Shown here one piece after another: positions 2,802 through 63,357 of a stretch of 64,000 nt of DNA (positions within the stretch are counted from its first letter, which is position 1; each line of letters starts with the position of its first letter). Location: NCBI GenBank assembly GCA_963422395.1, contig OY729431.1:1216001-1280000 (forward strand). Direction: 5' to 3'. The position numbers and the translations under genes were made by a program. The DNA comes from Vicinamibacteria bacterium. Its GTDB lineage: Bacteria > Acidobacteriota > Vicinamibacteria > Marinacidobacterales > Marinacidobacteraceae. The notes under the pieces are model-generated. The model worked only from the letters and a program-made list of their open reading frames with translations, was not told the DNA's origin and ran no database searches.

Positions 2802-2870
2802 CCCCCGGGCAGCCCCGGGGCAGCAGGTCCCCCTTCGGCCAGTAGAATCCGTTCCGATGAACACCGCCGA

Positions 2871-3993
2871 ATGAGTCAGGAACTGCTGGACCGTTGCGAA
2901 GCCCTGCTGGCGCGCGCTTCCGCCCACCGGGGGTTTCTTTGACCCGGCGGCCCTATCCGCAGAGATCGAAGGGCTCGACCAGCGACTGAGCGATTCCGGG
3001 GTCTGGTCGGGGGCCGGCGGAGGCGAAGCCCTCGCCCGCCGCCGGTCCGACCTGGCGGTGGAACTGGATCGCCATTCCCGGTTCGAACGCGTAATCGACG
3101 AGGTGGAAACACTCGCCGAGTGGACCCGGGAGGGAGAAGAGGTGGCCGAGGACTTCCGCGAGCACCTCGACCGTCTGGAGAGCCAACTCACCGATATCGA
3201 ACTGCGGCGGCTGTTCGCCGGCGAGCACGATGCTGAGGACGCGATCGTCACCATCAACCCGGGCGCCGGCGGAACCGACGCTCAGGACTGGGCGGAGATG
3301 CTCCTCGGGATGTATGTGCGCTGGGCGAAGAATCGCAGCTTCGAGATCGAGGTGCTCGACCGGCAGCCGGGGGAGGAGGCCGGAATCAAGGGAGCGACCC
3401 TCGAGGTGCGGGGAGACCACGCCTACGGGCGGCTCCGGGTCGAGTCGGGGGTCCACCGGCTGGTGCGGATGTCCCCCTTCGACACTCAGCACCGGCGCCA
3501 CACTTCCTTCGCCTCGGTGGCCGCCTTTCCCGATCTCGACGACCGGATCGAGATCGAGGTGGACGAGAACGACCTGCGCATAGACACCTTCCGCGCCAGC
3601 GGCAAGGGCGGCCAGCATGTGAATGTCACCGACTCCGCGGTCCGCATCACCCATCTGCCCACCGGGATCGTGGTCTCCTGCCAGAACGAACGCTCCCAGC
3701 ACCGGAACCGGGACAGCGCCATGAAAGTGCTCCGCGCCCGCATCCACGACCGCGCGGTGCGGGAGCGAAAGGCGCAGGAGGAAGCCCAGAAGGAGAGTCT
3801 CGGCGAAAACACCTGGGGCAACCAGATCCGCTCCTATGTGTTCCAGCCGTACCGGCTGGTCAAGGACCACCGCACCAACCACCAGGTGGGCGATGTGGAC
3901 CGGGTCATGAACGGAGATCTCGACGGCTTCATCGAAGCCGGTCTCGCCTTCGCCGCGCGAACCGGCAAGGCTCCGGGCTCCGGCGCATCGTAG
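2871..3993 (+). CDS. prfB: Peptide chain release factor 2, +1 programmed frameshift at 2937-2943
   Basis: ATG 2871 gives 23 codons to CTT-TGA-C with GGGGG 3 nt upstream; +1 frame continues into an ORF with the SPF and GGQ motifs. Confidence 0.97.
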
Positions 3994-6033: not shown

Positions 6034-7680
6034 ATGCGCCGTCCGTTCCGGGTTTCGTTCCTTTTTCTGATCTCTTCGGGGGTCGGGGCGGCGGCCTCCG
6101 CCGCGCTTTGGTCTGGTTGTGCTGGCGGGCCGTCCGGTTCGGAGGCCGCCCGGTTCGACGAGGCTCGGCTGCTCGAACAGATCGCCGTGCTCTCTTCCGA
6201 CGAATTCGGCGGGCGAGCTCCGGCTTCGCCCGGAGAAGAGAAGACGGTTGCGTGGCTGACGGATGCGTTCCGGACAGCCGGGCTCGATCCGGGAAATCCC
6301 GACGGTAGCTGGGTGCAGCCGGTTCCGCTGGTCGGCTCCACCGCTGCCGGCATGGAGGCTTCGTCGGATCCGGGCGGCGCCTGGGAGCCGGCGGTGGACT
6401 TCGTGGCCTGGACGAAACGGGTGGTTCCGGAGATCCGGGCGTCCGGGGAGTTGGTGTTCGTCGGCTACGGAGTCGAAGCTCCGGAATACCGCTGGGACGA
6501 TTTCGGCGAAACCGCCCTTGCGGGAAAGATCCTCGTCGTGCTGGTGAACGATCCGCCCGGCGAGCACCATTTCGGCGGCGAGGCGATGACCTACTACGGC
6601 CGCTGGACCTACAAATTCGAAAAGGCCGCCGCGATGGGCGCTCTCGGAGCGCTCATCGTCCACGAGACCGGCCCGGCGGGATATCCCTGGGAAGTGGTGA
6701 GCGGCTCGTGGACCGGAGAACAGTTCGACCTCCGCAGCCCCGGCGGGAATCTGGATCGGTTGGAGGTGGAGGGGTGGGTCTCCCGCGAGCGGGCGGTGTC
6801 GCTGTTCGAAGCTGCGGGGAGAGATTTCGACGAAGCGCGGGAAGCGGCCGCCGCGCCCGGGTTCTCTCCCATGCCGCTCGGGATCTCCGCCAGCTTCGTG
6901 CTCGAATCCGCGCACCGCGAGATCGACTCGAACAATGTGCTCGGGTTGCTGCCGGGTTCCGAGACGCCCGAGGAGCTCGTGATCTATACCGCGCACTGGG
7001 ATCATCTCGGTACCACAGCGGAAATGGAAGGCGACGGAATCTTCAATGGCGCTTTCGATAACGCCACCGGAACCGCGGGCCTCGCGGCGCTCGCGGAAGC
7101 CTTCGCCGCCGGAGGCGCGCCCCGGCGCAGCGTGCTCTTCCTCGCGGTGACCGCGGAGGAGCAGGGGCTGCTCGGTTCCCGCCATTACGCCGAGAATCCG
7201 CTCTATCCGACCGCGAACACGGTGGCGGCCATCAACATGGACGGCATGAACATCTGGGGGAGGACGACGGATATCACCGTGGTGGGCCTCGGCCAGTCGG
7301 AACTCGACGCGGTCGCCGGAGAGGTGGCGGCCGGGCTCGGCCGCGAACTGCGTCCGGACCCCGAGCCGGAAAAGGGCTTCTACTACCGCTCCGATCATTT
7401 CGAGATGGCGAAGGCGGGGATTCCCGCCTTCTATCCCGACGGCGGAGTGGACTTCCTCGGGAAGCCTCCGGGATTCGGCATGGAGGCCCGTGCCGCCTAT
7501 GTCGCCGAGGCCTACCACAAGCCTGGCGACGAGGTGCAGGACTGGTACGACCTCTCGGGCATGGTGGAAGACCTCGAGTTCCTCTACCGGATGGGCCGGC
7601 GCCTCGCCGACTCCGCCGAATGGCCCGAGTGGAGCGAAACGAGCGAGTTCCGTGCCCGCCGCCTCGAGGACCGCCGGTGA
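6034..7680 (+). CDS. M28 family metallopeptidase with PA domain
   Basis: 'TAHWDHLG', 'NGAFDNATG', 'TAEEQGLLGS', 'YRSDH', 'YHKPGD'. Confidence 0.93.
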   Translation: MRRPFRVSFLFLISSGVGAAASAALWSGCAGGPSGSEAARFDEARLLEQIAVLSSDEFGGRAPASPGEEKTVAWLTDAFRTAGLDPGNPDGSWVQPVPLVGSTAAGMEASSDPGGAWEPAVDFVAWTKRVVPEIRASGELVFVGYGVEAPEYRWDDFGETALAGKILVVLVNDPPGEHHFGGEAMTYYGRWTYKFEKAAAMGALGALIVHETGPAGYPWEVVSGSWTGEQFDLRSPGGNLDRLEVEGWVSRERAVSLFEAAGRDFDEAREAAAAPGFSPMPLGISASFVLESAHREIDSNNVLGLLPGSETPEELVIYTAHWDHLGTTAEMEGDGIFNGAFDNATGTAGLAALAEAFAAGGAPRRSVLFLAVTAEEQGLLGSRHYAENPLYPTANTVAAINMDGMNIWGRTTDITVVGLGQSELDAVAGEVAAGLGRELRPDPEPEKGFYYRSDHFEMAKAGIPAFYPDGGVDFLGKPPGFGMEARAAYVAEAYHKPGDEVQDWYDLSGMVEDLEFLYRMGRRLADSAEWPEWSETSEFRARRLEDRR

Positions 7681-8844: not shown

Positions 8845-8849
8845 GCTAG

Positions 8850-9019
8850 CAGTCCGTGGATAAAGTGGTGCGAGCGCCAAGACCGGGGAGGCGCCTGGCT
8901 GACAAGGCGCGAATCGGGAGGCATACCGGGCGTATTCCGACGGATTCGCAACGAAGAGCGAAGCGGTTCAGCCGGGATGAATCGCCGGTCGACTGCCGTG
9001 TGACTTTGTCCACGGGCTG
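8850..9019 (+). mobile_element. MITE copy 1 (170 bp)
   Basis: Terminal inverted repeats CAGTCCGTGGATAAAGT / ACTTTGTCCACGGGCTG, flanked by CTAG on both sides; three more copies in the window. Confidence 0.85.
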
Positions 9020-10507
9020 CTAGCGTACGGTTTGGGCGGTGCGCATCAGATAGGGCTCGACCCGTTCGAGGGGCGGTGGGTCGGTGCGGAGAGAGACTGC
9101 GATCAGGACCAGCACATTCGCTGCCGCCCCGTAGATGCCGGGATGGATCCCCAACGGGGCGAGGACGGGCCACAGGTTGCCCGCCAGCGTGACGGTACAG
9201 CCGGCGAGGAGTCCAGCGATGGCACCGGCCCGGCTCGCCCGACGCCAGAACATCGCGGCGATCATCAGCGGGAAGAACTGGGCGATGGCGCCGTACGACA
9301 GGAGCAGCAGCCCGACCAGCGACGCCTCGGAACCCACCGCGAAGTAGTAGGCGACCGAGGCCATCCCGAGCGCGGTCCAGCGGATGCGCCGGGTCTCGGC
9401 GGCGGGCGTCCGGCGGATGCGCCGGAGCGGGACTTCGAGATCCTTCACCAGCACCGACGCGCCGGCGTGGAGGATGGCGTCTCCCGAACTCATCGAGGCG
9501 GCGAGCGCGCCGGCGCAGAAGAGTCCCACGGTGAGCGCCGAGAGGTCGAGGTCCATGAGGATCGTCGGCAGGATGGTGTCCGCCGGCTCGACGCCGGGAT
9601 AGGCGGCGATCCCGGAGAATCCGATGAAGAGCACCGGAATCAGGAAGATCTGGAAGGTCGGATAGAAGACCACCATCCGCTTGAGGGTCCGGATGCTCCG
9701 GGCGGCGTAGATCTTCATGAAGTAGTGCGGCCATACGGAAAAGCCGAGTACCGAGATCAGCACCGCGCTCGAATAGGCGCCGAAGCCCCACGGTTCGCCC
9801 GCGGTGTCGAGGCCCGGGGCGGTCAGCATCTCGGGCGCTGCGGCTGCGAGTTCCTCGAACATCGGGCCGATCCCGCCGTGGAGCTTTAGAGGAAGGTAGA
9901 GCCCCAGCCCCCAGGCGAGCCCCAGCATCAGGATGCCCTGGAAGGTATTCGTCCAGCCGACGCCGAGCACGCCGCTCCGAGCCACATAGAGGAACACCAC
10001 CCCGTAGGCGAGGGCGGCGCCCGCCCACTCCGGCATCCGCCCCTCGGTCACCACCGAAAAGACATACCCGGCGCCCTTCATCTGGATCACGAGGTAGGGG
10101 ATGAGCGCCGCCGCGCTCATGATCGCCATGATCGCGGGGACCGCGCGCGGGCTCTCGAAACGGTGGGCGAAGAACTCCGCCTGAGTCACGAACCCGAAGC
10201 GGCGCCCGAGCATCGCGATCCGAGGACCGAGGAAGTACCACGGCAGCAGCCCCACCGTCCCGTAGGAGACGATGTAGAAGGCTGCTGCGCCGCGCGAGTA
10301 GGCCCAGCCGGGGGCGCCCAGGAACGCGAAGGCGCTGTAGATCGACGCCCCCATGATGAAGTAGAGGACGATGAAGCCCAGGCTTCGGTCGCCGGCCACG
10401 AACCCCTCGGGGGTGTTCGACATCCGGCGGCCCGAGGCGACCCCGATCGCCAGGGTGACGCCGAGGTAGGCGAGAGTCGTCAGGAAGACGATGACCCAGG
10501 GGTCCAT
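9020..10507 (-). CDS. Sodium:solute symporter family transporter
   Basis: Many TM helices; 'FVAGDRSLG', 'SAFAFLGAPG', 'ALAASMSS'. Confidence 0.92.
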   Translation of the reverse strand: MDPWVIVFLTTLAYLGVTLAIGVASGRRMSNTPEGFVAGDRSLGFIVLYFIMGASIYSAFAFLGAPGWAYSRGAAAFYIVSYGTVGLLPWYFLGPRIAMLGRRFGFVTQAEFFAHRFESPRAVPAIMAIMSAAALIPYLVIQMKGAGYVFSVVTEGRMPEWAGAALAYGVVFLYVARSGVLGVGWTNTFQGILMLGLAWGLGLYLPLKLHGGIGPMFEELAAAAPEMLTAPGLDTAGEPWGFGAYSSAVLISVLGFSVWPHYFMKIYAARSIRTLKRMVVFYPTFQIFLIPVLFIGFSGIAAYPGVEPADTILPTILMDLDLSALTVGLFCAGALAASMSSGDAILHAGASVLVKDLEVPLRRIRRTPAAETRRIRWTALGMASVAYYFAVGSEASLVGLLLLSYGAIAQFFPLMIAAMFWRRASRAGAIAGLLAGCTVTLAGNLWPVLAPLGIHPGIYGAAANVLVLIAVSLRTDPPPLERVEPYLMRTAQTVR

Positions 10508-20769: not shown

Positions 20770-23700
20770 ATGCGGGATACTTCCCTCATGCTTCGTGGAT
20801 CGTGTCTCCTCTTCGTTGTCGGGATCTTCGCTGCCCCGGCCGGGATTGCCGGGTCCTCACTCGCCGCCGCGCCGCCGCCCGCGGAGCAGAACCGTGCCGC
20901 ACCCCCGGAAGGCGAGGAAGATCCGCGCGAGCCCTCCTTGCTCGAAAGGGCGCGGGGCGATTCCGCCGCGCCTCCGCTCCCCGCTGCCGAATCACAGCAA
21001 CAGCAGGATCCCGCCGAGGAGCCCGAGGAGACCGTTCAGGATCCGGAAGCGGACATTACCGAACTCCGCTATGAGGAGGAGGTCTCGGTCACCGGAACCG
21101 CGATCCGCGAGACCCCGATCGATTCTCCCTACTCGGTGTCGTTCGTCAACCGCGACACCCTGGTCCAGCGCGGATCGCCGCAGCTCGTGGATATGTTCAA
21201 GAGTCTCACCGCAAGCAGCGGGGTCATCGGCGAAGTGAACAGTTGGTACGCCGGCAGCACGAATGTCCCGGAGACGGTGGCGAATGTGAACTTGCGCGGC
21301 CTGGGGGCGTCGCGGACCCTGGTTCTCATCAACGGCCGCCGCCAGGTCCATGTTCCCGCCCAGCTCGTCGGCGGCCGTTTCGTGGATGTGAACTCGATAC
21401 CGGGGATCGCCGTGGAACGGCTGGATGTACTCAAGGAGGGGGCCGGCGCGATCTATGGTTCCGATGCCATCGGCGGGGTGGTTAACTTCATCACCCGCAA
21501 CACCTTCGAGGGCCTTGAAGTGCAGGCGTCCCACGAGTACTTCGAGGGGGGCGGAGATTCGCTGTTCTCGGGTATCTGGGGACGGCGTTTCGGAACCAGG
21601 AATGTCGTCGTTGCATTCGAGCACCAGCGCCGCGCCCGACTCGAAGCGGAGGAGCGGAGCTTCACATTGCGTCCTTACCCGAACTGGAGGTGGGGATGGT
21701 CGGGGGTCGGAAACCCAGGTGCCTTCATCGTTCCCGGAGCCGGTCCGCTGAACGAGACAGGGCTCGCGGCCGCGCCGCGCTTCATGGATCCTCAGTGCGA
21801 GAACTTCGGCGGCTATGTGGACAACGAGTTGCGGAGCTGCCGGTTCCGCTATCAGCCGTGGGATGACCTCATCCCAGAGACCCAGCACACTCGGGGGTTG
21901 GTCGAGGTCAGCGGGGATGTCGGAGAACACGGCTACTACCGGATCGATGGTCTGTTTGCCGATGCGCAGACCCCCAATTGGGAGACCACTCCCTCCTTTC
22001 CGCCGGTGTCTCTGCTGAACCAGGTGCAGCTCGTCGGCCCCGATCATCCCGGCCGTCAGGCGCTCGCCGCTCGGTATCCGGGGCTCTACGCCGCCGATGG
22101 CGCAGCGCTGGATCTGACCGGCAGCGAACCCTGGTACTTCTTCGGGCGGCTGGTCGGGAATTCCGGTCCGGGCCGCGTCCTGAAGCGGGAGAGTTCGACT
22201 GCGAGGATCACTGCATCGCTCGGCGGCGAACTCGGCGGCGGGCTCCACTACGACATCGGTGCGGTAGCGGCCCGTTCCACTGGCAATGTGAATCAGCCGG
22301 CGGAATACGCCTACCGAAAATTCCTCGCCTTCCGCGGGTTCGGCGGGCCGAACTGCGGCGTGGGTGTGGTGGTGGACCCGAACGCACTCTCGCGGATGGG
22401 GCTCGGGGACCCGGGCGGAGCCGCTCCGGGGCAGGGGAACTGCATGTACTACAACCCGTTCTCGAACGGCCTTCAGTTCTCCGCGCAACCAGGCGCGCCC
22501 TATCTCGATGCCGCGAACCCCGAATACGAAGCGGCTCTCGCGAACTCCGCCGAGCTGCTCGGCTGGATCAACGAGCAAGTCGATGTGCAGTCCACCTCCG
22601 ACCTGTTCTCCGCCGACGCGACCTTGAACGGCGTGCTGAGCGAGAGCGCCAGCTACGCCGTCGGCTACCAGTTCCGCCGGGTAGGCGCGAGCGCCCACCC
22701 GAACGATGCCGGGAATCTTTCGCTGCATCCCTGCCCGGTTCCCGGCGACCGGGGGTGCGCGATCCAGACCGGCCCCTTCACCTTCACCACCGCCCGCCAT
22801 CCATACGACGCCAACCAGACGACCCATGCGGTGTTCACCGAGCTGGCGCTGAACCTCGGCTCCCGCTTCGACGCCCAGATCGCCGGCCACTACGAGAAGT
22901 ACGACTTCGCCGACAGCTTCGATCCCAAGGTGGCCGTCATCTTCCATCCCGTCGAGAACTTCGCGCTGCGCGGCACGGCGCAGACGAGCTTCCGGACTCC
23001 GTCGGTAGATGATCTGAACGAGGATCTAGCGACCTACCTCGACTGGGTCTCGGCGAGCGGCACCTGGAAGGCGATCGACGACTCCGGCAGCAAGGACCTC
23101 CTGCCCGAGCAGGCGTTCACCTACAACCTCGGAATGACAGTGAGTACCGACGGCGGGTTCGACGCGACACTCGACTACTGGCACTTCGACTTCGACAACC
23201 CGATCAGCACCCTGCCTCACTCCGGCATCGTGAGCGCCTACGGGAACCCCGCCACCCGCAGCCGGGTGCAGCACCTGATCACTTGTCCCGGGGGCCTCAC
23301 CGATGGAAGCTGCGACCCGGTGGACATCGAGCGCATTCGGGTCCGTCGGGTCAACGCCACCGCCCTCAAGACCTCGGGGGTGGACTCCCACCTCGGCTAC
23401 CGCGGAGCGATCGGACCAGCGCCCTCGTCTTCAACTTCGACGCCAGCTACACCCTCGACTACACCGTGGAGGCGCTTTTCCACGAGGGCGTCGAATTGAT
23501 CGCCGAAGAACAGGCGGCGGGCTTCCTGAACCGGACGAACCCGCTTGCTCCGCCGCTGCCCAAGCTCAGGACGCATACGCTCCTCTCCTGGCTCTTCGGC
23601 CCGTTCACGATCACCGGCGCCTCGCAGTACATCTCCGGCTATCGGGACCGGACGACGACGGCGGAATATGAGAACATCGATTCCTGGCTGATCTTCGACG

Positions 23701-23867
23701 CCAATCTCCAGTACCGTGTTCCGGATACCCAGATGCTGATCACGTTTTCGGTGCTGAACCTGACCGGGACCCATCCGCCGCTCGTGAACCAGGAGCTCGC
23801 CTTCGACGCCCTGACCCACAACCCCAAGGGCCGCCGCTTCAAGGTCGGTGTCTCCTACGAGTTCTAA
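20770..23867 (+). pseudogene. TonB-dependent receptor with one frameshift near 23413 (pseudogene or sequence error)
   Basis: 'VSVTGT' TonB box, plug 'VNLRGLGASRTLVLINGRR', 'GAIYGSDAIGGVVNFI'; the C-terminus ending 'GVSYEF' is in another frame. Confidence 0.85.
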
Positions 23868-30282: not shown

Positions 30283-31005
30283 ATGCTACGGTTCCTCCTC
30301 TTGCCGAGCCACCGCGACCGCAGCACCGACCACGCGAAGCGCCCGTGGTGGAAATCTTTCCGAACCACTGCGGCGATCGGTTACTGCATCCGCCACTACT
30401 CCGGACCGTGGAATCGGATGGTGATCGAGCGGGCGGGGATCCGCGCCGGCGACCGGGTAGTGGACATCGGTTGCGGGCCGGGCGAGGCGGCGCTGCTGGC
30501 TGTCCGGAGTGCTTCGGGAGTCGAGGTTCTGGCGATCGATCCCGCCTGGCCCTGCTGTCTGGCCACCGGTGTCCGGTCGCTCGGACTGCTCGGGTCGTTC
30601 CGCTCGTTCGTCGAGGCGGAGTCCTGGGGCGCAGTACGGGTGCGGCGCGCCTCTGCCGAGAGCCTTCCGTCCGAGAGCGGCTGGGCCACCCTCGTCCTTT
30701 CGATCAACGCCTTCCACCATTGGGCCGACCCCAAGCGGGGCCTCGCCGAGGTGCGTCGGGTGCTCGCCCCCGGAGGCCGGCTGGTGCTCGTGGACGAGGA
30801 CTTTCCGGAGGATCACCATCACACCCGCTTCCATAACGAGTCGCAGACGGTGGCCCCGGTCCACGCCGCGAGCCCCGAGGTCCATGGATGGCTTCGGGAA
30901 CTCGGTTTCGGCCTGGCCGGTGTCGAGCGGATCGAGGATGCGGAGGGCTCTCCCCACCACTTCCTCCGTGCGGTCGTTCCGTCTCCAGCCGAACCTACCG
31001 GCTGA
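30283..31005 (+). CDS. Class I SAM-dependent methyltransferase
   Basis: 'VVDIGCGPG', 'AESLP', 'FHHWAD', 'RVLAPGGRL'; start uncertain. Confidence 0.85.
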   Translation: MLRFLLLPSHRDRSTDHAKRPWWKSFRTTAAIGYCIRHYSGPWNRMVIERAGIRAGDRVVDIGCGPGEAALLAVRSASGVEVLAIDPAWPCCLATGVRSLGLLGSFRSFVEAESWGAVRVRRASAESLPSESGWATLVLSINAFHHWADPKRGLAEVRRVLAPGGRLVLVDEDFPEDHHHTRFHNESQTVAPVHAASPEVHGWLRELGFGLAGVERIEDAEGSPHHFLRAVVPSPAEPTG

Positions 31006-31089: not shown

Positions 31090-31730
31090 TTCAGAATCCG
31101 AACTGGCTGCTGTGGCAGCAGTTCGGATTCCTGGCGCGGAGCGCCGGGCGGTTCGGGGGCGGGGTGTCCCGCCTTCCCACGAGAGTGCGAGATGCAACCT
31201 GACATCACACCCCGCCGGAGAGGGCCTCGATCCTCATCCGTGGCCCGGAAAACATCTGATGCGGCCGAGCCTGTGGCTCGGGAGCGTCGCAGCGGGGGAA
31301 AGTGTGAAAGGGAGTTTCACCCCCGTTCACGGATTGGCGATTCAGAATCCGAACTGGCTGCTGTGGCAGCAGTTCGGATTCCCGGCGCGGAGCGCCGGGC
31401 GGTTCGGGGGCGGGGTGTCCCGCTCTTCCCACGAGAGTGCGAGATGCAACCTGACATCACACCCCGCCGGAGAGGGCCTCGATCCTCATCCGTGGCCCGG
31501 AAAACATCTGATGCGGCCGAGCCTGTGGCTCGGGAGCGTCGCAGCGGGGGAAAGTGTGAAAGGGGGTTTACCCCCGTTCACGGATTGGCGATTCAGAATC
31601 CGAACTGGCTGCTGTGGCAGCAGTTCGGATTCCCGGCGCGGAGCGCCGGGCGGTTCGGGGGCGGGGTGTCCCGCTCTTCCCACGAGAGTGCGAGATGCAA
31701 CCTGACATCACACCCCGCCCCCGAACCGCC
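31090..31730. repeat. 251-bp structured tandem repeat, about 2.5 copies
   Basis: TCAGAATCCGAACTG recurs at 31091, 31342 and 31593; near-identical copies; multiple hairpins. Confidence 0.95.
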
Positions 31731-31816
31731 TGGTGCCGAAGGGGGGACTCGAACCCCCACGGGATAACTCCCATACGCCCCTCAAGCGCACGTGTCTACC
31801 ATTCCACCACTTCGGC
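31731..31816 (-). tRNA. tRNA-Leu(GAG)
   Basis: GCCGAAGTGGTGGAATGGTAGAC...TTGAGGG...GGTTCGAGTCCC...GGCACCA with a long variable arm; follows secG. Confidence 0.95.
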
Positions 31817-31832
31817 ATTCCACCACTTCGGC
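31801..31832. repeat. Tandem duplication of the first 16 nt of tRNA-Leu
   Basis: ATTCCACCACTTCGGC twice (31801-31816 and 31817-31832). Confidence 0.9.
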
Positions 31833-31894: not shown

Positions 31895-32278
31895 TCAGTC
31901 CGAAGGATCCGATTCGGGCTCGGAGGCTTCCTCTTCGGGGCTTTCGCGCTCTCCGCTCTCCGGCGTGTCCCCCGGAGGTTCTTCCTCGGGTTCCATGGGC
32001 GCGGCGGGAACGCTGACCCCCGGCACATCCACGACCGTTTCGGCATCGACGCCGCCCTGGACATATCCGAGCAGCAGGGAGGTGACCATGAAGGTCGCCG
32101 CAGCGCCGGCGGTGATCTTGGTGAGTAGCGTCGCGGTGCCGCGGGCCCCGAAGGCCGCCTGGGTGCCGGCGCCGCCGAAGGCACTCGCCAAGTCTTGCCC
32201 CTTGCCCTGCTGCGTCAGCACCACGAGCACGAGGAAGACGCAGACCAGGATGTGAAAGATAGTCAGCAGAATCGTCAT
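31895..32278 (-). CDS. secG: Preprotein translocase subunit SecG
   Basis: 'LVVLTQQGKGQDLASAFGGAG...FGARG...LTKIT'; downstream of tpiA. Confidence 0.95.
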   Translation of the reverse strand: MTILLTIFHILVCVFLVLVVLTQQGKGQDLASAFGGAGTQAAFGARGTATLLTKITAGAAATFMVTSLLLGYVQGGVDAETVVDVPGVSVPAAPMEPEEEPPGDTPESGERESPEEEASEPESDPSD

Positions 32279-34268: not shown

Positions 34269-34350
34269 AGCGGCGCGAACCTTACGATATCCGGGGCATC
34301 CTCCGAAGGATCACCGGCGGCTACGATCCTTTCCGCATTCGCCCTCCGAC

Positions 34351-34935: not shown

Positions 34936-35068
34936 AGCGTCTTACTGTCGCTTGCTGCACCGACACGATGCGCCGGCCGCTCGATCTGCCCAGCCGGAAG
35001 GATCTGCGGCTGGCGATGCCCCCCGGTCCGCTGCCACTTCATAGGGAGGTCTCCTGCCACAGTTTTAG

Positions 35069-35430
35069 CAGCCCGTGGAAAAACTACCCTAATCGGTGAG
35101 GATCAGCGGCCCCGGAGGGGGTGCCGTGATCGGCGCAGTACGGCGTGCGGGCGCGGTCTGCGCGGGCAAACCGCCCGACAGGGCGCTATCCAGGCCCAGG
35201 CGGGCGTTTCCCGGCTCCGGTAGGCGAAAATGAGAGCGAAAAGCGCGGCGCCGACCGCGGCCGCGCGCCCCTGCAGTCGTCGCGGCTTGCCGATTCCGCA
35301 CCGGTGGCGCATCAGCAGCCCGAGGTCGAAGCCGGCTGCCTGGATCGACAGCCGCTTCCCGATGTTCCCCCGTCCGCGCAAATACAGCCGCCGCATCCCC
35401 CCGGTCTCGTAACAGGCGTTACCGTGCCGA
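35069..35430 (-). mobile_element. IS1182-like element remnant (transposase C-terminus plus right end)
   Basis: 'YETGGMRRLYLRGRGNIGKRLSIQAAGFDLGLLMR'; terminal TTTTTCCACGGGCTG followed by CTAA; upstream boundary approximate. Confidence 0.7.
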
Positions 35431-35824
35431 TTTCTCTTTTGCCTTCCGCTGTCTCCACGCGCTGGAACCAAGTCGCCGAGCAAGCGAGAACTCCCTGGAA
35501 TTCCTGTCCGATTCCGTGAAACGCGATCAGGATTTCTGTCTGATCGGCGTTTCGGATCACCAAGCGCGCCCAGGAACGGTAAGTATGTGTGTCGGCGAAA
35601 TACTCTAGTCGCTTGGCAGTTTGGATGATCTGGTATTGAAAGAAATGACTCCGCTCGCCATTTCTGGATTCGCAAGGCTTCCGTGCGGGATCACTGCCGC
35701 CCGTATGCCTTGCTCGATGAGAAGTTGGGTGATGCCGCGATCCAGGGCCGTAGCTGCCCCGAGATCGCTGACGCCGACCGCGTTTGCGCTGAAATGGAGG
35801 ATGCGGCTCGCCGGCTGCCGGTGG

Positions 35825-38578: not shown

Positions 38579-38806
38579 ATGAAGATCTCGATCACGTATT
38601 GCGTCGTTTGAAACTACCTTCCGAACGCCGCCAGTCTGGCGGCGGCCATCGAGAAGTCACGCGGCGTCGAGCCTGAACTCATCGAAGGCAGCAAGGGCGT
38701 CTTCGATGTCCGGTTGGACGGCGAGCTGATCTACTCCAAGTACGACACCGGCCGCTTCCCCGAACCCGCGGAAGTCCTCGACCGGATCCCGGCCTCGGCG
38801 AACTGA
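38579..38806 (+). CDS. SelT/SelW/SelH (Rdx) family selenoprotein, UGA at 38609 read as Sec
   Basis: MKISITYCVV-U-NYLPNAASLA...GSKGVFDV...LIYSK..TGRFPEP; CxxU motif; hairpin at 38626-38644; alternative in-frame start at 38564. Confidence 0.9.
38626..38644 (+). promoter_or_regulatory. Putative bacterial SECIS hairpin
   Basis: CGCCGCCA-GTC-TGGCGGCG, 14 nt after the in-frame UGA. Confidence 0.7.
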
Positions 38807-50195: not shown

Positions 50196-50525
50196 GTCCT
50201 TCGCTCCTCCTCGAGTTCGAGCTGGGTATGGGCAGCGTAGCGGGGCGGCTCCTCCTTCGGGAGATCGCTCGGATCGACCGTCAGGTATTGCCGCTCCATA
50301 CCAACGGTGGACGGCGGCGTCCTCTTCCGACGACCGGTTCGCCAGCAGACCGCCCGCCCGGGAAGGCGGATCGCCCGACGGCCTCCCCGATCGGCATCGA
50401 AACCGGCTTCGCCCGCGGGTCGAACCGCGGGCGAAGAAGAACGGGTGGAGAAATCGGGCCGGGGTGTAGTCGGCAGGCACCGTGCCTCCCCCGCCGAAAG
50501 CCGGAAAGCACGGCGAAGTCTTCTA

Positions 50526-50634
50526 CAGTCCGTGGATGAAGTGGCGCGAGCACCGAGACCGGGGAGGCGCCCGGCTGACAAGGCGCGAATCGGCTCGCTA
50601 CTCGGCAATGCCGTGTGACTTCGTCCACGGGCTG
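50526..50634 (+). mobile_element. MITE copy 2 (109 bp, internally deleted)
   Basis: CAGTCCGTGGATGAAGT...ACTTCGTCCACGGGCTG flanked by CTA on both sides. Confidence 0.85.
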
Positions 50635-50700
50635 CTAAAAGCCGGGGGCGTTCTCGAGTGCGCTATGCTGGCGAGCGTCCGTGTCCTTGGTTCCCCGATC

Positions 50701-56782: not shown

Positions 56783-57250
56783 TCAGAGGAGCGCGAAGAC
56801 AGCGATCATGACGATTCCGCCAGCGAACAGTTCGAGGATTCCGTTACGAATGCACGCGAAGCTGACGGAGAGAGCATTGGTCATGACGATCGTCCCCAGC
56901 TGGTTCTGGTCCAGGTAGAAGAGCCTCGTTGCGCGCAGTGGATTTTCCTCGAGTGCCGCCTGGTGGTTAGCAGCTTGTGGACAAAGTCACACGGCCAAAG
57001 GCCGGCGATGCCCAGTTCTCCCGGTGGGGGCCCCGGCTGAACCGCTTCGCTCGGCGTTGCGATTCGGTCGGAATACACCCGGTATGCCTCCCGAATCGCG
57101 CCTTGTCAGCCGGGCGCCTCCCCGACCTTGGGGCTCGCGCCACTTCATCCACAGGCTGCTAGCAGAGACGCTATACACCTTGCGGAAGGGAGGGATCGGG
57201 GTTGTGATCCGAGATTCGGAGTGGTGCGGATCGGTCGTTCCCCGCTCTCC
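56783..57250 (-). pseudogene. C-terminal remnant of an unknown membrane protein interrupted by MITE copy 3
   Basis: Removing the MITE and one target copy gives the open frame '...FRKVYSVSANHQAALEEN...TNALSVSFACIRNGILELFAGGIVMIAVFALL*'; no start codon. Confidence 0.4.
56971..57158 (-). mobile_element. MITE copy 3 (188 bp)
   Basis: CAGCTTGTGGACAAAGT...ACTTCATCCACAGGCTG flanked by TTAG and CTAG. Confidence 0.88.
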
Positions 57251-63127: not shown

Positions 63128-63313
63128 CGGCCGTGGAGAGTAGCGAGCGAGCCCCAAGATCGGTGAGGCGCCCGGCGGACAAGGCGCGATTCGGGAGGCA
63201 TACCGGGAGTATTCCGACGGAATCGCAACGCCGAGCGAAGCGTTCAGCCGGGGCCCCCACCGGGAGAACTGGGCATCGCCGGCCTTTGGCCGTGTGACTT
63301 TGTCCACAAGCTG
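63128..63313 (+). mobile_element. MITE copy 4 (degenerate left end)
   Basis: Close to the reverse complement of copy 3; ends GTGTGACTTTGTCCACAAGCTG. Confidence 0.85.
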
Positions 63314-63357
63314 TTGAGGACCAGAGGCATGGATAGACTGCGCCCTCCCCGGTGCCC

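Follow-up and report, generated by a model that had tools for sequence, protein, structure and literature searches.

A probable BIME-like mobile hairpin repeat in tandem behind a tRNA-Leu(GAG) gene of an uncultured Acidobacteriota lineage

Introduction

Among the described bacterial repeats, those closest to the sequence analysed here are structured units behind tRNA genes and the dispersed elements of the REP/BIME type. In E. coli, the units behind tyrT repeat the tRNA 3' end. The rtT RNA of this locus is treated in bioRxiv 10.1101/2024.07.17.603846. Theta ribozymes also occur at tRNA 3' ends (PMC10879173). In the REP/BIME systems, Y1 transposases bind folded single-stranded DNA in a strand-specific manner, and a rolling-circle-like amplification has been proposed (PMC3333891, PMC8266576). 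The copies of a tandem BIME are almost identical at any one locus, and their number differs from genome to genome (PMC3333891). Dimers of REPs have been described (PMC3733652), as have the REPINs of Pseudomonas fluorescens SBW25, linked to RAYT (PMC3337134). In Acidobacteria and Planctomycetes, class 3 TnpA-Y1 is associated with atypical, high-copy secondary structures that present a CnGA foot (PMC6006769).

The locus discussed here lies in a 64,000-nucleotide stretch of a Vicinamibacteria bacterium (contig OY729431.1, positions 1,216,001 to 1,280,000), referred to as the window, in which a tandem array follows the tRNA-Leu(GAG) gene. We consider it likely that its unit, or cassette, is a BIME-like, non-autonomous repeat of about 230-260 bp that acts as a single-stranded DNA hairpin, comprises five hairpins, occupies many sites across its lineage, has a hotspot at the 3' end of tRNA-Leu(GAG) and is amplified head to tail. 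The family would then be a larger, five-hairpin, GTAG-less addition to the REP/BIME/REPIN repeats in an uncultured Acidobacteriota lineage. Its covarying copies, recurrent tRNA site and arrays at several stages provide material on how such repeats spread and amplify, and the cassette is a concrete candidate substrate for the poorly known HUH-Y1 classes.

The array behind tRNA-Leu(GAG)

The array and its surroundings comprise the following features.

31895..32278, minus strand: secG, the upstream neighbour, in the order pgk-tpi-secG-tRNA-Leu
31800..31832, minus strand: the 5' end of the tRNA, of which 16 bp are exactly duplicated in tandem; no such duplication at any of the 57 relative loci where tRNA-Leu(GAG) was called
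31731..31816, minus strand: tRNA-Leu(GAG) with encoded CCA, the cassette insertion site
31090..31730, minus strand: whole array, with one complete cassette, one complete unit in which the H1 left arm is half degenerate, and a distal copy cut off after H3
31486..31730, minus strand: tRNA-proximal copy (H1-H5 and spacer), homologous by BLAST and alignments to the single tRNA-Leu cassettes of relatives
31649..31730, minus strand: H1, a perfect 21-bp inverted repeat with an unconserved 40-nt loop (31670-31709), the arms of which covary across relatives
31632..31650, plus strand: H2, a short hairpin, the triloop of which reads C-GNA-G on the plus strand (opposite the tRNA); further copies at 31381-31399 and about 31130-31148 (one substitution)
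31596..31632, no strand assigned: H3, a 12-bp stem with an inner helix; copies at 31345-31381 and 31094-31130
31546..31581, no strand assigned: H4, a G/C-run hairpin (31556-31581) with a conserved unpaired tail (31546-31555); second copy at about 31294-31330
31498..31533, minus strand: H5, a hairpin (31517-31533) with a short T-rich run behind it, the two together terminator-like in relatives; also at 31265-31281 (second copy)
31234..31485, minus strand: middle copy, with the family start signature GGATCGA 20 nt ahead of the H1 loop and a putative boundary
31090..31233, minus strand: distal copy with H1-H3 only, ending after H3 and so lacking H4 and H5
30418..31005, plus strand: methyltransferase gene, converging on the array

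The sequence-only reading from which this work started had described a tandem array fused to the tRNA-Leu 3' end, and this is borne out: the repeat runs from 31090 to 31719 with a period of 251, 2.5 copies, 98% matches and spacings of 251/252, and the array abuts the CCA of the tRNA. It had also noted few substitutions and indels between copies; the distal and middle copies differ by two substitutions and two single-base indels, and the middle and tRNA-proximal copies are completely identical over the 127 bp that they have in common. An assembly duplication had been doubted, and an artefact is indeed unlikely because the copies differ, the contig is 2.9 Mb long and arrays of the same subfamily occur in two other assemblies. 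The 16-bp duplication at 31800-31832 may be real slippage or an assembly error. Neither sequence comparison nor covariance models revealed a second cassette copy outside the array within the 64-kb window, and a promoter/terminator scan gave no site in the array. Two long plus-strand frames that cover the array are called spurious, since they match no Pfam or NCBIfam family and their database relatives are repeat read-throughs of mixed frame.

In the internal copies of the window, the GGATCGA placed exactly 20 nt ahead of the H1 loop probably marks the true start of the unit. This signature makes another candidate start, a GGCGG microhomology in the H1 arm, less likely. A CRISPR-like capture of a spacer by each copy in the H1 loop was rejected, as the loops are homologous between species and common to many dispersed copies; the H1 loop has no match elsewhere in the window.

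All the stems listed in the sequence-only reading are present, except that the G-rich one carries a mismatch. The 21-bp stem said to start at the base after CCA is perfect (31649-31669 with 31710-31730), and is the longest perfect inverted repeat of the window among those with loops of up to 60 nt. The tRNA-proximal unit folds far better than its shuffled versions (z -6.5, 0/200). However, the description of the units as almost fully paired does not hold: the paired fraction is 0.66-0.73, against 0.67+-0.04 in 60 random stretches of the window, and the amplified internal unit, at -121.6 kcal/mol, lies within the window background of -114.4+-12.5. The internal copies have lost the outer half of the H1 pairing, and in the middle copy it is the outer half of the left arm that is unpaired. 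Two further elements of the proposed fold, the GGGCC/GGCCC stem and two small hairpins in the H1 loop, are present but unconserved in the GTDB relatives, and only in this genome does the main stem start exactly at the CCA, 6-7 nt intervening in relatives. Both strands have about equal folding energies, which are thus uninformative for strand assignment.

Comparison with described systems

Like the BIME-2 and atypical BIMEs of E. coli (TnpAREP), the cassette is a dispersed intergenic mosaic of hairpins with variable linkers and local, near-identical tandems. Unlike a BIME, it measures 230-260 bp, holds five dissimilar hairpins with no REP/iREP pair and has a recurrent site at a tRNA 3' end. The GTAG found at the hairpin foot of REP/BIME elements is absent from the cassette copies of the window and of the relative loci L001, L003, L006 and L014, and occurs as single unconserved matches in those of L009 and L036; there are no CGTC feet among the tabulated hairpin feet, and the attC patterns searched for in the cassette gave nothing conserved. 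REPINs share with the cassette a long hairpin with an unconserved middle (H1, approximately 82 nt) and tandem arrangements, but H1 is REPIN-like in its size alone: its arms, although complementary, are no palindromic REPs, they differ from one subtype to another, and four further hairpins go with them. From the TIR-type MITEs the cassette differs in that its ends are no mutual inverted copies and no target-site duplication is seen.

The structures of class 3 TnpA-Y1 occur in the same phylum. On the strand opposite the tRNA, the H1 foot reads CCGA in six of the eight aligned rows, CCGG in the proximal copy of the window and CTGG in L013, and the internal window copies start with TCGA; the other hairpins are inconsistent in this respect. 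A class 3 gene was not seen in the ORFs of the window or in the frames beside the cassette.

As at tyrT, the window units are tandem repeats directly behind a tRNA gene. Unlike those of tyrT, they contain no duplicate of the tRNA 3' end, the longest exact tRNA match in the array being 7 nt, and the cassette is not of the tyrT type because its units hold no tRNA sequence. A true tyrT-type arrangement is found at L056 (3200-3540), where a structured unit of about 260 bp accompanies a duplicated tRNA-Leu 3' end and a terminator-like hairpin.

Theta (HDV-like) ribozymes resemble the cassette in being structured sequences that begin at a tRNA 3' end. They are recognised by a nested double pseudoknot, a catalytic C and a G1 within 5 nt of the tRNA end. 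That the unit could be a self-cleaving ribozyme, either a theta/HDV-like trailer with a role in tRNA 3' trimming or a retrozyme-like array spreading as circular RNA, agrees with the G directly after CCA, with a unit size near 250 nt and with the known position of theta ribozymes. This reading is nevertheless extremely improbable: no nested pseudoknot core was detected in the cassette, which is four times longer and mostly not linked to a tRNA; no Rfam ribozyme family matches when E values as high as 5-10 are allowed; loose patterns for HDV-like and hammerhead cores, run with no positive control, gave 0 matches in seven copies on both strands; the distance from CCA to H1 varies; and circular folding of the unit brings no improvement over linear folding.

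Anatomy and conservation of the cassette in relatives

Relatives were collected by one GTDB genome scan, for which 46 of the 120 listed SecG proteins had been aligned; it yielded 60 loci, and tRNA-Leu(GAG) was called in 57 of them. The SecG relatives are Acidobacteriota, and the nearest loci are titled Candidatus Marinacidobacterium, Vicinamibacteria or Acidobacteria. A tree of Tpi, Pgk and SecG places the window as sister to L030 plus a clade of 16 loci, and the window shares 68-70% amino-acid identity with the seven clade members measured.

With the window unit alone as query, BLAST finds homologues directly behind tRNA-Leu in relatives; weak matches in L007 were judged unrelated by eye. What the relatives keep is the single cassette and not the array; behind the tRNA they carry one copy, part of one or none. 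Along the tRNA strand, the elements of the cassette follow one another as H1, H2, H3, a pyrimidine linker, H4, the conserved unpaired tail, H5 and a T-rich run. Across loci, H1 is an inverted repeat of 20-29 bp with a loop of about 40 nt (80-84 nt overall), H2 is a short hairpin with a 3-nt loop, H3 is a 12-bp stem with inner helices, H4 is a G/C-run hairpin, and H5 with its T-rich run is kept in relatives.

Structural conservation, which had been proposed as a check, is present, the stems being conserved and covarying. The identity between the window and its relatives is 89-93% in H2, H4 and the tail and 21-29% in the linkers, which are saturated, and the H1 loop, with 44-50% at fourfold-degenerate sites. 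In H1, 11 of the 21 pairs have changed on both sides, with 23 such cells in the alignment against two one-sided ones, a level that none of 500 shuffles reaches, and in H3-H5 the same holds for 8 of the 42 pairs; these figures come from related, non-independent genomes and are not to be read as probabilities. For screens of non-coding RNA this carries a caution, as mobile DNA hairpins can give strong covariation behind a tRNA. Rfam, also named as a check, holds no family for the cassette in the window, L003, L009 or seven loci, where only sub-threshold generic hairpin matches appeared. Plasmid and phage sequences, searched by BLAST, yielded nothing beyond short matches (E 0.02-0.8). The cassette family is apparently undescribed, no description having been found in the literature searched, which left most subscription papers outside its scope.

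Patchy presence and subtypes at tRNA-Leu

Of the 16 loci of the clade, 15 show the tRNA end, and 14 of these begin with the first bases of the cassette after CCA, the exception being L002. Covariance-model matches adjoin the tRNA in nine of these 15 loci of the nearest cassette-bearing clade (all nine being training rows) and in none of 11 other close loci. These 11 carry no cassette at the tRNA, and in nine a gap of about 14-131 bp separates the tRNA from the end of the methyltransferase gene. Within the clade, copies are often deleted or broken by other palindromes (L008, L011, L012, L016, L022 and L037). A diverged full copy lies between secG and the tRNA in L014, that is, upstream of the tRNA; it is matched by both covariance models (E 0.003 and 0.0014) and belongs to neither training set. 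In L007 (13894-13979) and L010 (11500-11585), tRNA-Leu is inverted relative to secG, with small genes inserted between the two.

Comparison of the H1 sequences shows that cassette subtypes cut across the host tree. The hosts L036 and L037 are 97% identical in amino acids, yet the identity of their cassettes is 80% in the H1 arm and 61% in the loop, whereas L003 and L037, with 80% identical hosts, reach 95% in the arm and 72% in the loop; shuffled H1 loops give a baseline of 50+-6% identity.

The retention of the first cassette bases at CCA in 14 of the 15 loci suggests long residence, and possibly a benefit for the host. One explanation along these lines, compatible with a mobile hairpin repeat, is that the cassette came as mobile DNA but has been kept as a 3' trailer structure of tRNA-Leu, the array being a by-product. 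H5 and the T-run would terminate transcription, and the pgk-tpi-secG-tRNA transcript would be protected by the stems, or isolated by them from the methyltransferase gene that runs towards it. The conserved H5 with its T-rich run fits this proposal, as do an ancestral G-T pair at the base of H1 and the GNRA-type loops, on the tRNA strand, of a 95-nt insert in L009, L013 and L036. REPs have, in addition, been reported as transcription terminators and mRNA stabilisers (PMC3333891). We regard retention as a trailer as possible but rather unlikely, given the 11 close relatives that lack the cassette there, most of them with a short gap to the methyltransferase gene, the frequent deletion or interruption of clade copies, the blank terminator scan and the distal copy of the window without H4 and H5.

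Dispersal and tandem copies in other assemblies

The first motif scans of the 60 loci had indicated a strict linkage to the tRNA, which was discarded as a sampling effect because the loci are centred on secG. For the same reason, spurious ORF calls over the cassette were used as a probe for copies elsewhere. With the 197-aa frame of the window as query, the database ORFs P0123, P0124 and P0125 were found (P0126, a repeat-domain protein, is a false match and was dropped before counting), and P0125 as query added 69 more, 72 in total. The family yields many spurious ORFs in protein databases. At least two core modules (H2-H3, H4-tail or H5) are matched by 67 of the 72 ORFs, against 0 of 219 control open frames; H3/H2 comes next, at a fixed spacing, in 58 of 64 cases where H5 and H4 are neighbours, and a module is present twice in 37 of the 72. 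These counts are made at the translated level, without DNA context, and the length filter of 159-508 aa favours arrays over single tRNA-linked copies; read in this way, only one ORF runs into tRNA-Leu among the 49 informative ones, which continue for 45 residues or more beyond their final H3/H2 match. The own ORF of the window was detected as positive control. Seven contig sizes recur two or three times among the matching ORFs, and in those inspected the flanks differ.

P0123 consists of tandem 256/257-nt units that are about 80% identical to the window unit and have the same internal junction; tandem units explain it with 0-1 codon conflicts in 66-112, and non-tRNA sequence follows its last copy. 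The units of P0124 measure 249 nt and those of P0125 about 297-318, P0123 and P0124 being arrays of the window's own subfamily. These translated sequences support a cassette that is dispersed, multi-copy and often tandem in the lineage, with tRNA-Leu as one recurrent site among many. The suggestion of a REP-like element amplified at a tRNA, made in the sequence-only reading, is thus the one that gains support.

Palindromic units that have no relation to the cassette likewise occur in tandem within the clade, with 138 bp x4.2 in L003 and 130-155 bp x2 in L008, L036 and L037. The array of L003 (10882-11460) is non-coding, made of REP-like palindromes and placed directly behind the cassette. In L007, a degenerate non-coding tandem array of about 1.1 kb occupies 6352-7459.

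The dispersed copies largely refute the idea that an integrative island at tRNA-Leu left the array behind as an attachment arm, or that the array is a meaningless accident of assembly or slippage. Duplications of the tRNA-Leu(GAG) 3' end in L026 and L056, accessory genes behind the cassette in several relatives and the private 16-bp duplication of the tRNA 5' end in the window would be in keeping with it. Nonetheless, neither the cassette-bearing loci nor the window has a second tRNA 3' fragment downstream, there is no shared integrase, many copies lie away from a tRNA and the stems are conserved, all of which make this origin highly improbable.

Single-stranded DNA or RNA as the selected form

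Watson-Crick pairs occupy 480 of the 514 stem cells. The exceptions, counted on the tRNA strand, comprise seven G-T, ten A-C and ten other positions, so that neither strand is favoured for wobble pairs. In 8/8 rows, the strand opposite the tRNA has C-GNA-G as its H2 loop (N being G, A or C); H3 contains a further C-GNA-G in 6/8 rows. Among perfect triloop hairpins, C-GNA-G accounts for 54 of 97 in the clade, one of 31 in the other close loci and five of 68 in distant loci, again counted in related genomes, and for 1-2 of 38-53 in three shuffles. The GCGNAGC sequence forms an extra-stable DNA mini-hairpin, known at single-stranded DNA origins and at the N4 promoter (PMC13037366). From these loops and pairs we infer that the cassette structure is selected in single-stranded DNA. 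Three features count against this: H1 has one ancestral G-T pair at its base, a T-run follows H5, and the optional 95-nt insert of L009, L013 and L036 has loops that read as GNRA-type on the tRNA strand.

If the selected form were RNA, the array could be a dedicated non-coding RNA, cotranscribed with the tRNA and processed to unit-length RNAs like E. coli rtT behind tyrT, which the sequence-only reading had offered as an analogy. Its position against CCA, its strong covariation and its lack of an Rfam family agree with this, and so does the recurrence of the tandem state, with the same junction, in a second organism. The tyrT/rtT-like array is nonetheless unsupported and in our view very unlikely: the unit has no tRNA piece beyond the match of at most 7 nt, relatives have no, a partial or one copy, 48 of the 49 informative homologous ORFs stop short of tRNA-Leu and the P0123 array ends in non-tRNA sequence. 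Furthermore, the G-U bias is absent on the tRNA strand, the two strands fold about equally well, and the amplified units, without half of H1, fold at background level.

Proposed mechanism of spread and amplification

The mobile, BIME-like repeat remains our preferred reading, and it builds on observations made at the sequence level: the anatomy of the cassette, the conservation of its stems, its presence away from tRNA-Leu, its patchiness, the subtypes that conflict with the hosts and the recurrent arrays. The cassette would work as folded single-stranded DNA. The enzyme that cuts and rejoins it, encoded elsewhere, would probably be a Y1/HUH transposase, with class 3 TnpA-Y1 as a candidate. 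No Y1/HUH or other cognate transposase (RAYT/TnpAREP included) was found in 49 ORFs of the window or in 34 cassette-adjacent frames of relatives. Copies may be gained through rolling-circle-like amplification or through slippage and unequal crossing-over. Simple slippage could also have built the array of the window, since the same tRNA has its private 16-bp duplication.

The choice of the tRNA end may reflect its last bases (TCGGCAC), which resemble the end of an adjoining REP-like palindrome. In dispersed copies, such a palindrome often adjoins the H1 end, and it ends in CGGCAC, as the tRNA does before CA. This likeness might explain the tRNA-Leu hotspot, although it is a weak step: the palindrome has 33 copies in relatives and 0 in the window, so that target mimicry is unsupported in this organism.

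A bolder interpretation, which we hold to be distinctly unlikely, sees in the cassette a new class of non-autonomous single-stranded DNA element, distinct from REPs and from IS200/605 derivatives. One arm of H1 would be copied from the other at insertion, hence arms that are perfect yet fast-changing, with almost no wobble intermediates. The 40-nt loop would act as a subfamily-specific guide or recognition module that steers the element to REP-like palindromes and to tRNA-Leu, the tandem units would be replication products with fixed ends, and the tRNA-borne copy would be a stably transcribed master that seeds the others.

Other elements in the window and relatives

A separate MITE-like family, unrelated to the array unit, is about 180 bp long, with inverted repeats of about 18 bp at its ends, and is flanked by CTAG/TTAG-like sequences. 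It lies in the window at 8845-9022, 50519-50640, 56960-57166 and 63147-63324, one of the four copies being internally deleted, and also in L003, L006, L008, L009, L014, L020, L025, L036 and L037, in tandem in L008, L036 and L037. A probable insertion-sequence remnant on the minus strand, at about 35065-35500 between gap and the cobalamin adenosyltransferase gene, has an end similar to that of this MITE; it matches no Pfam or NCBIfam family and presumably resembles the C-terminus of a transposase.

A very stable multi-hairpin sequence with a T-arm-like motif, unrelated to the cassette and with no Rfam match, follows tRNA-Leu in L047 (10041-10340). A cobalamin riboswitch lies near the start of pgk in L001, L012, L013 and L005; Rfam gave none at 34269-34350 of the window, where the gap between pgk and the adenosyltransferase gene is about 80 bp. 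Behind tRNA-Asp, an ORF of the SelT/SelW/SelH family (38579-38806, plus strand) has an in-frame TGA in a CxxU motif, is conserved in relatives and likely encodes a selenoprotein. The release factor 2 gene (2802-3993) shows an apparent frame break near its start, which we take to be the expected programmed frameshift, and a TonB-dependent receptor (20788-23867) is read in two frames, split near 23466-23499.
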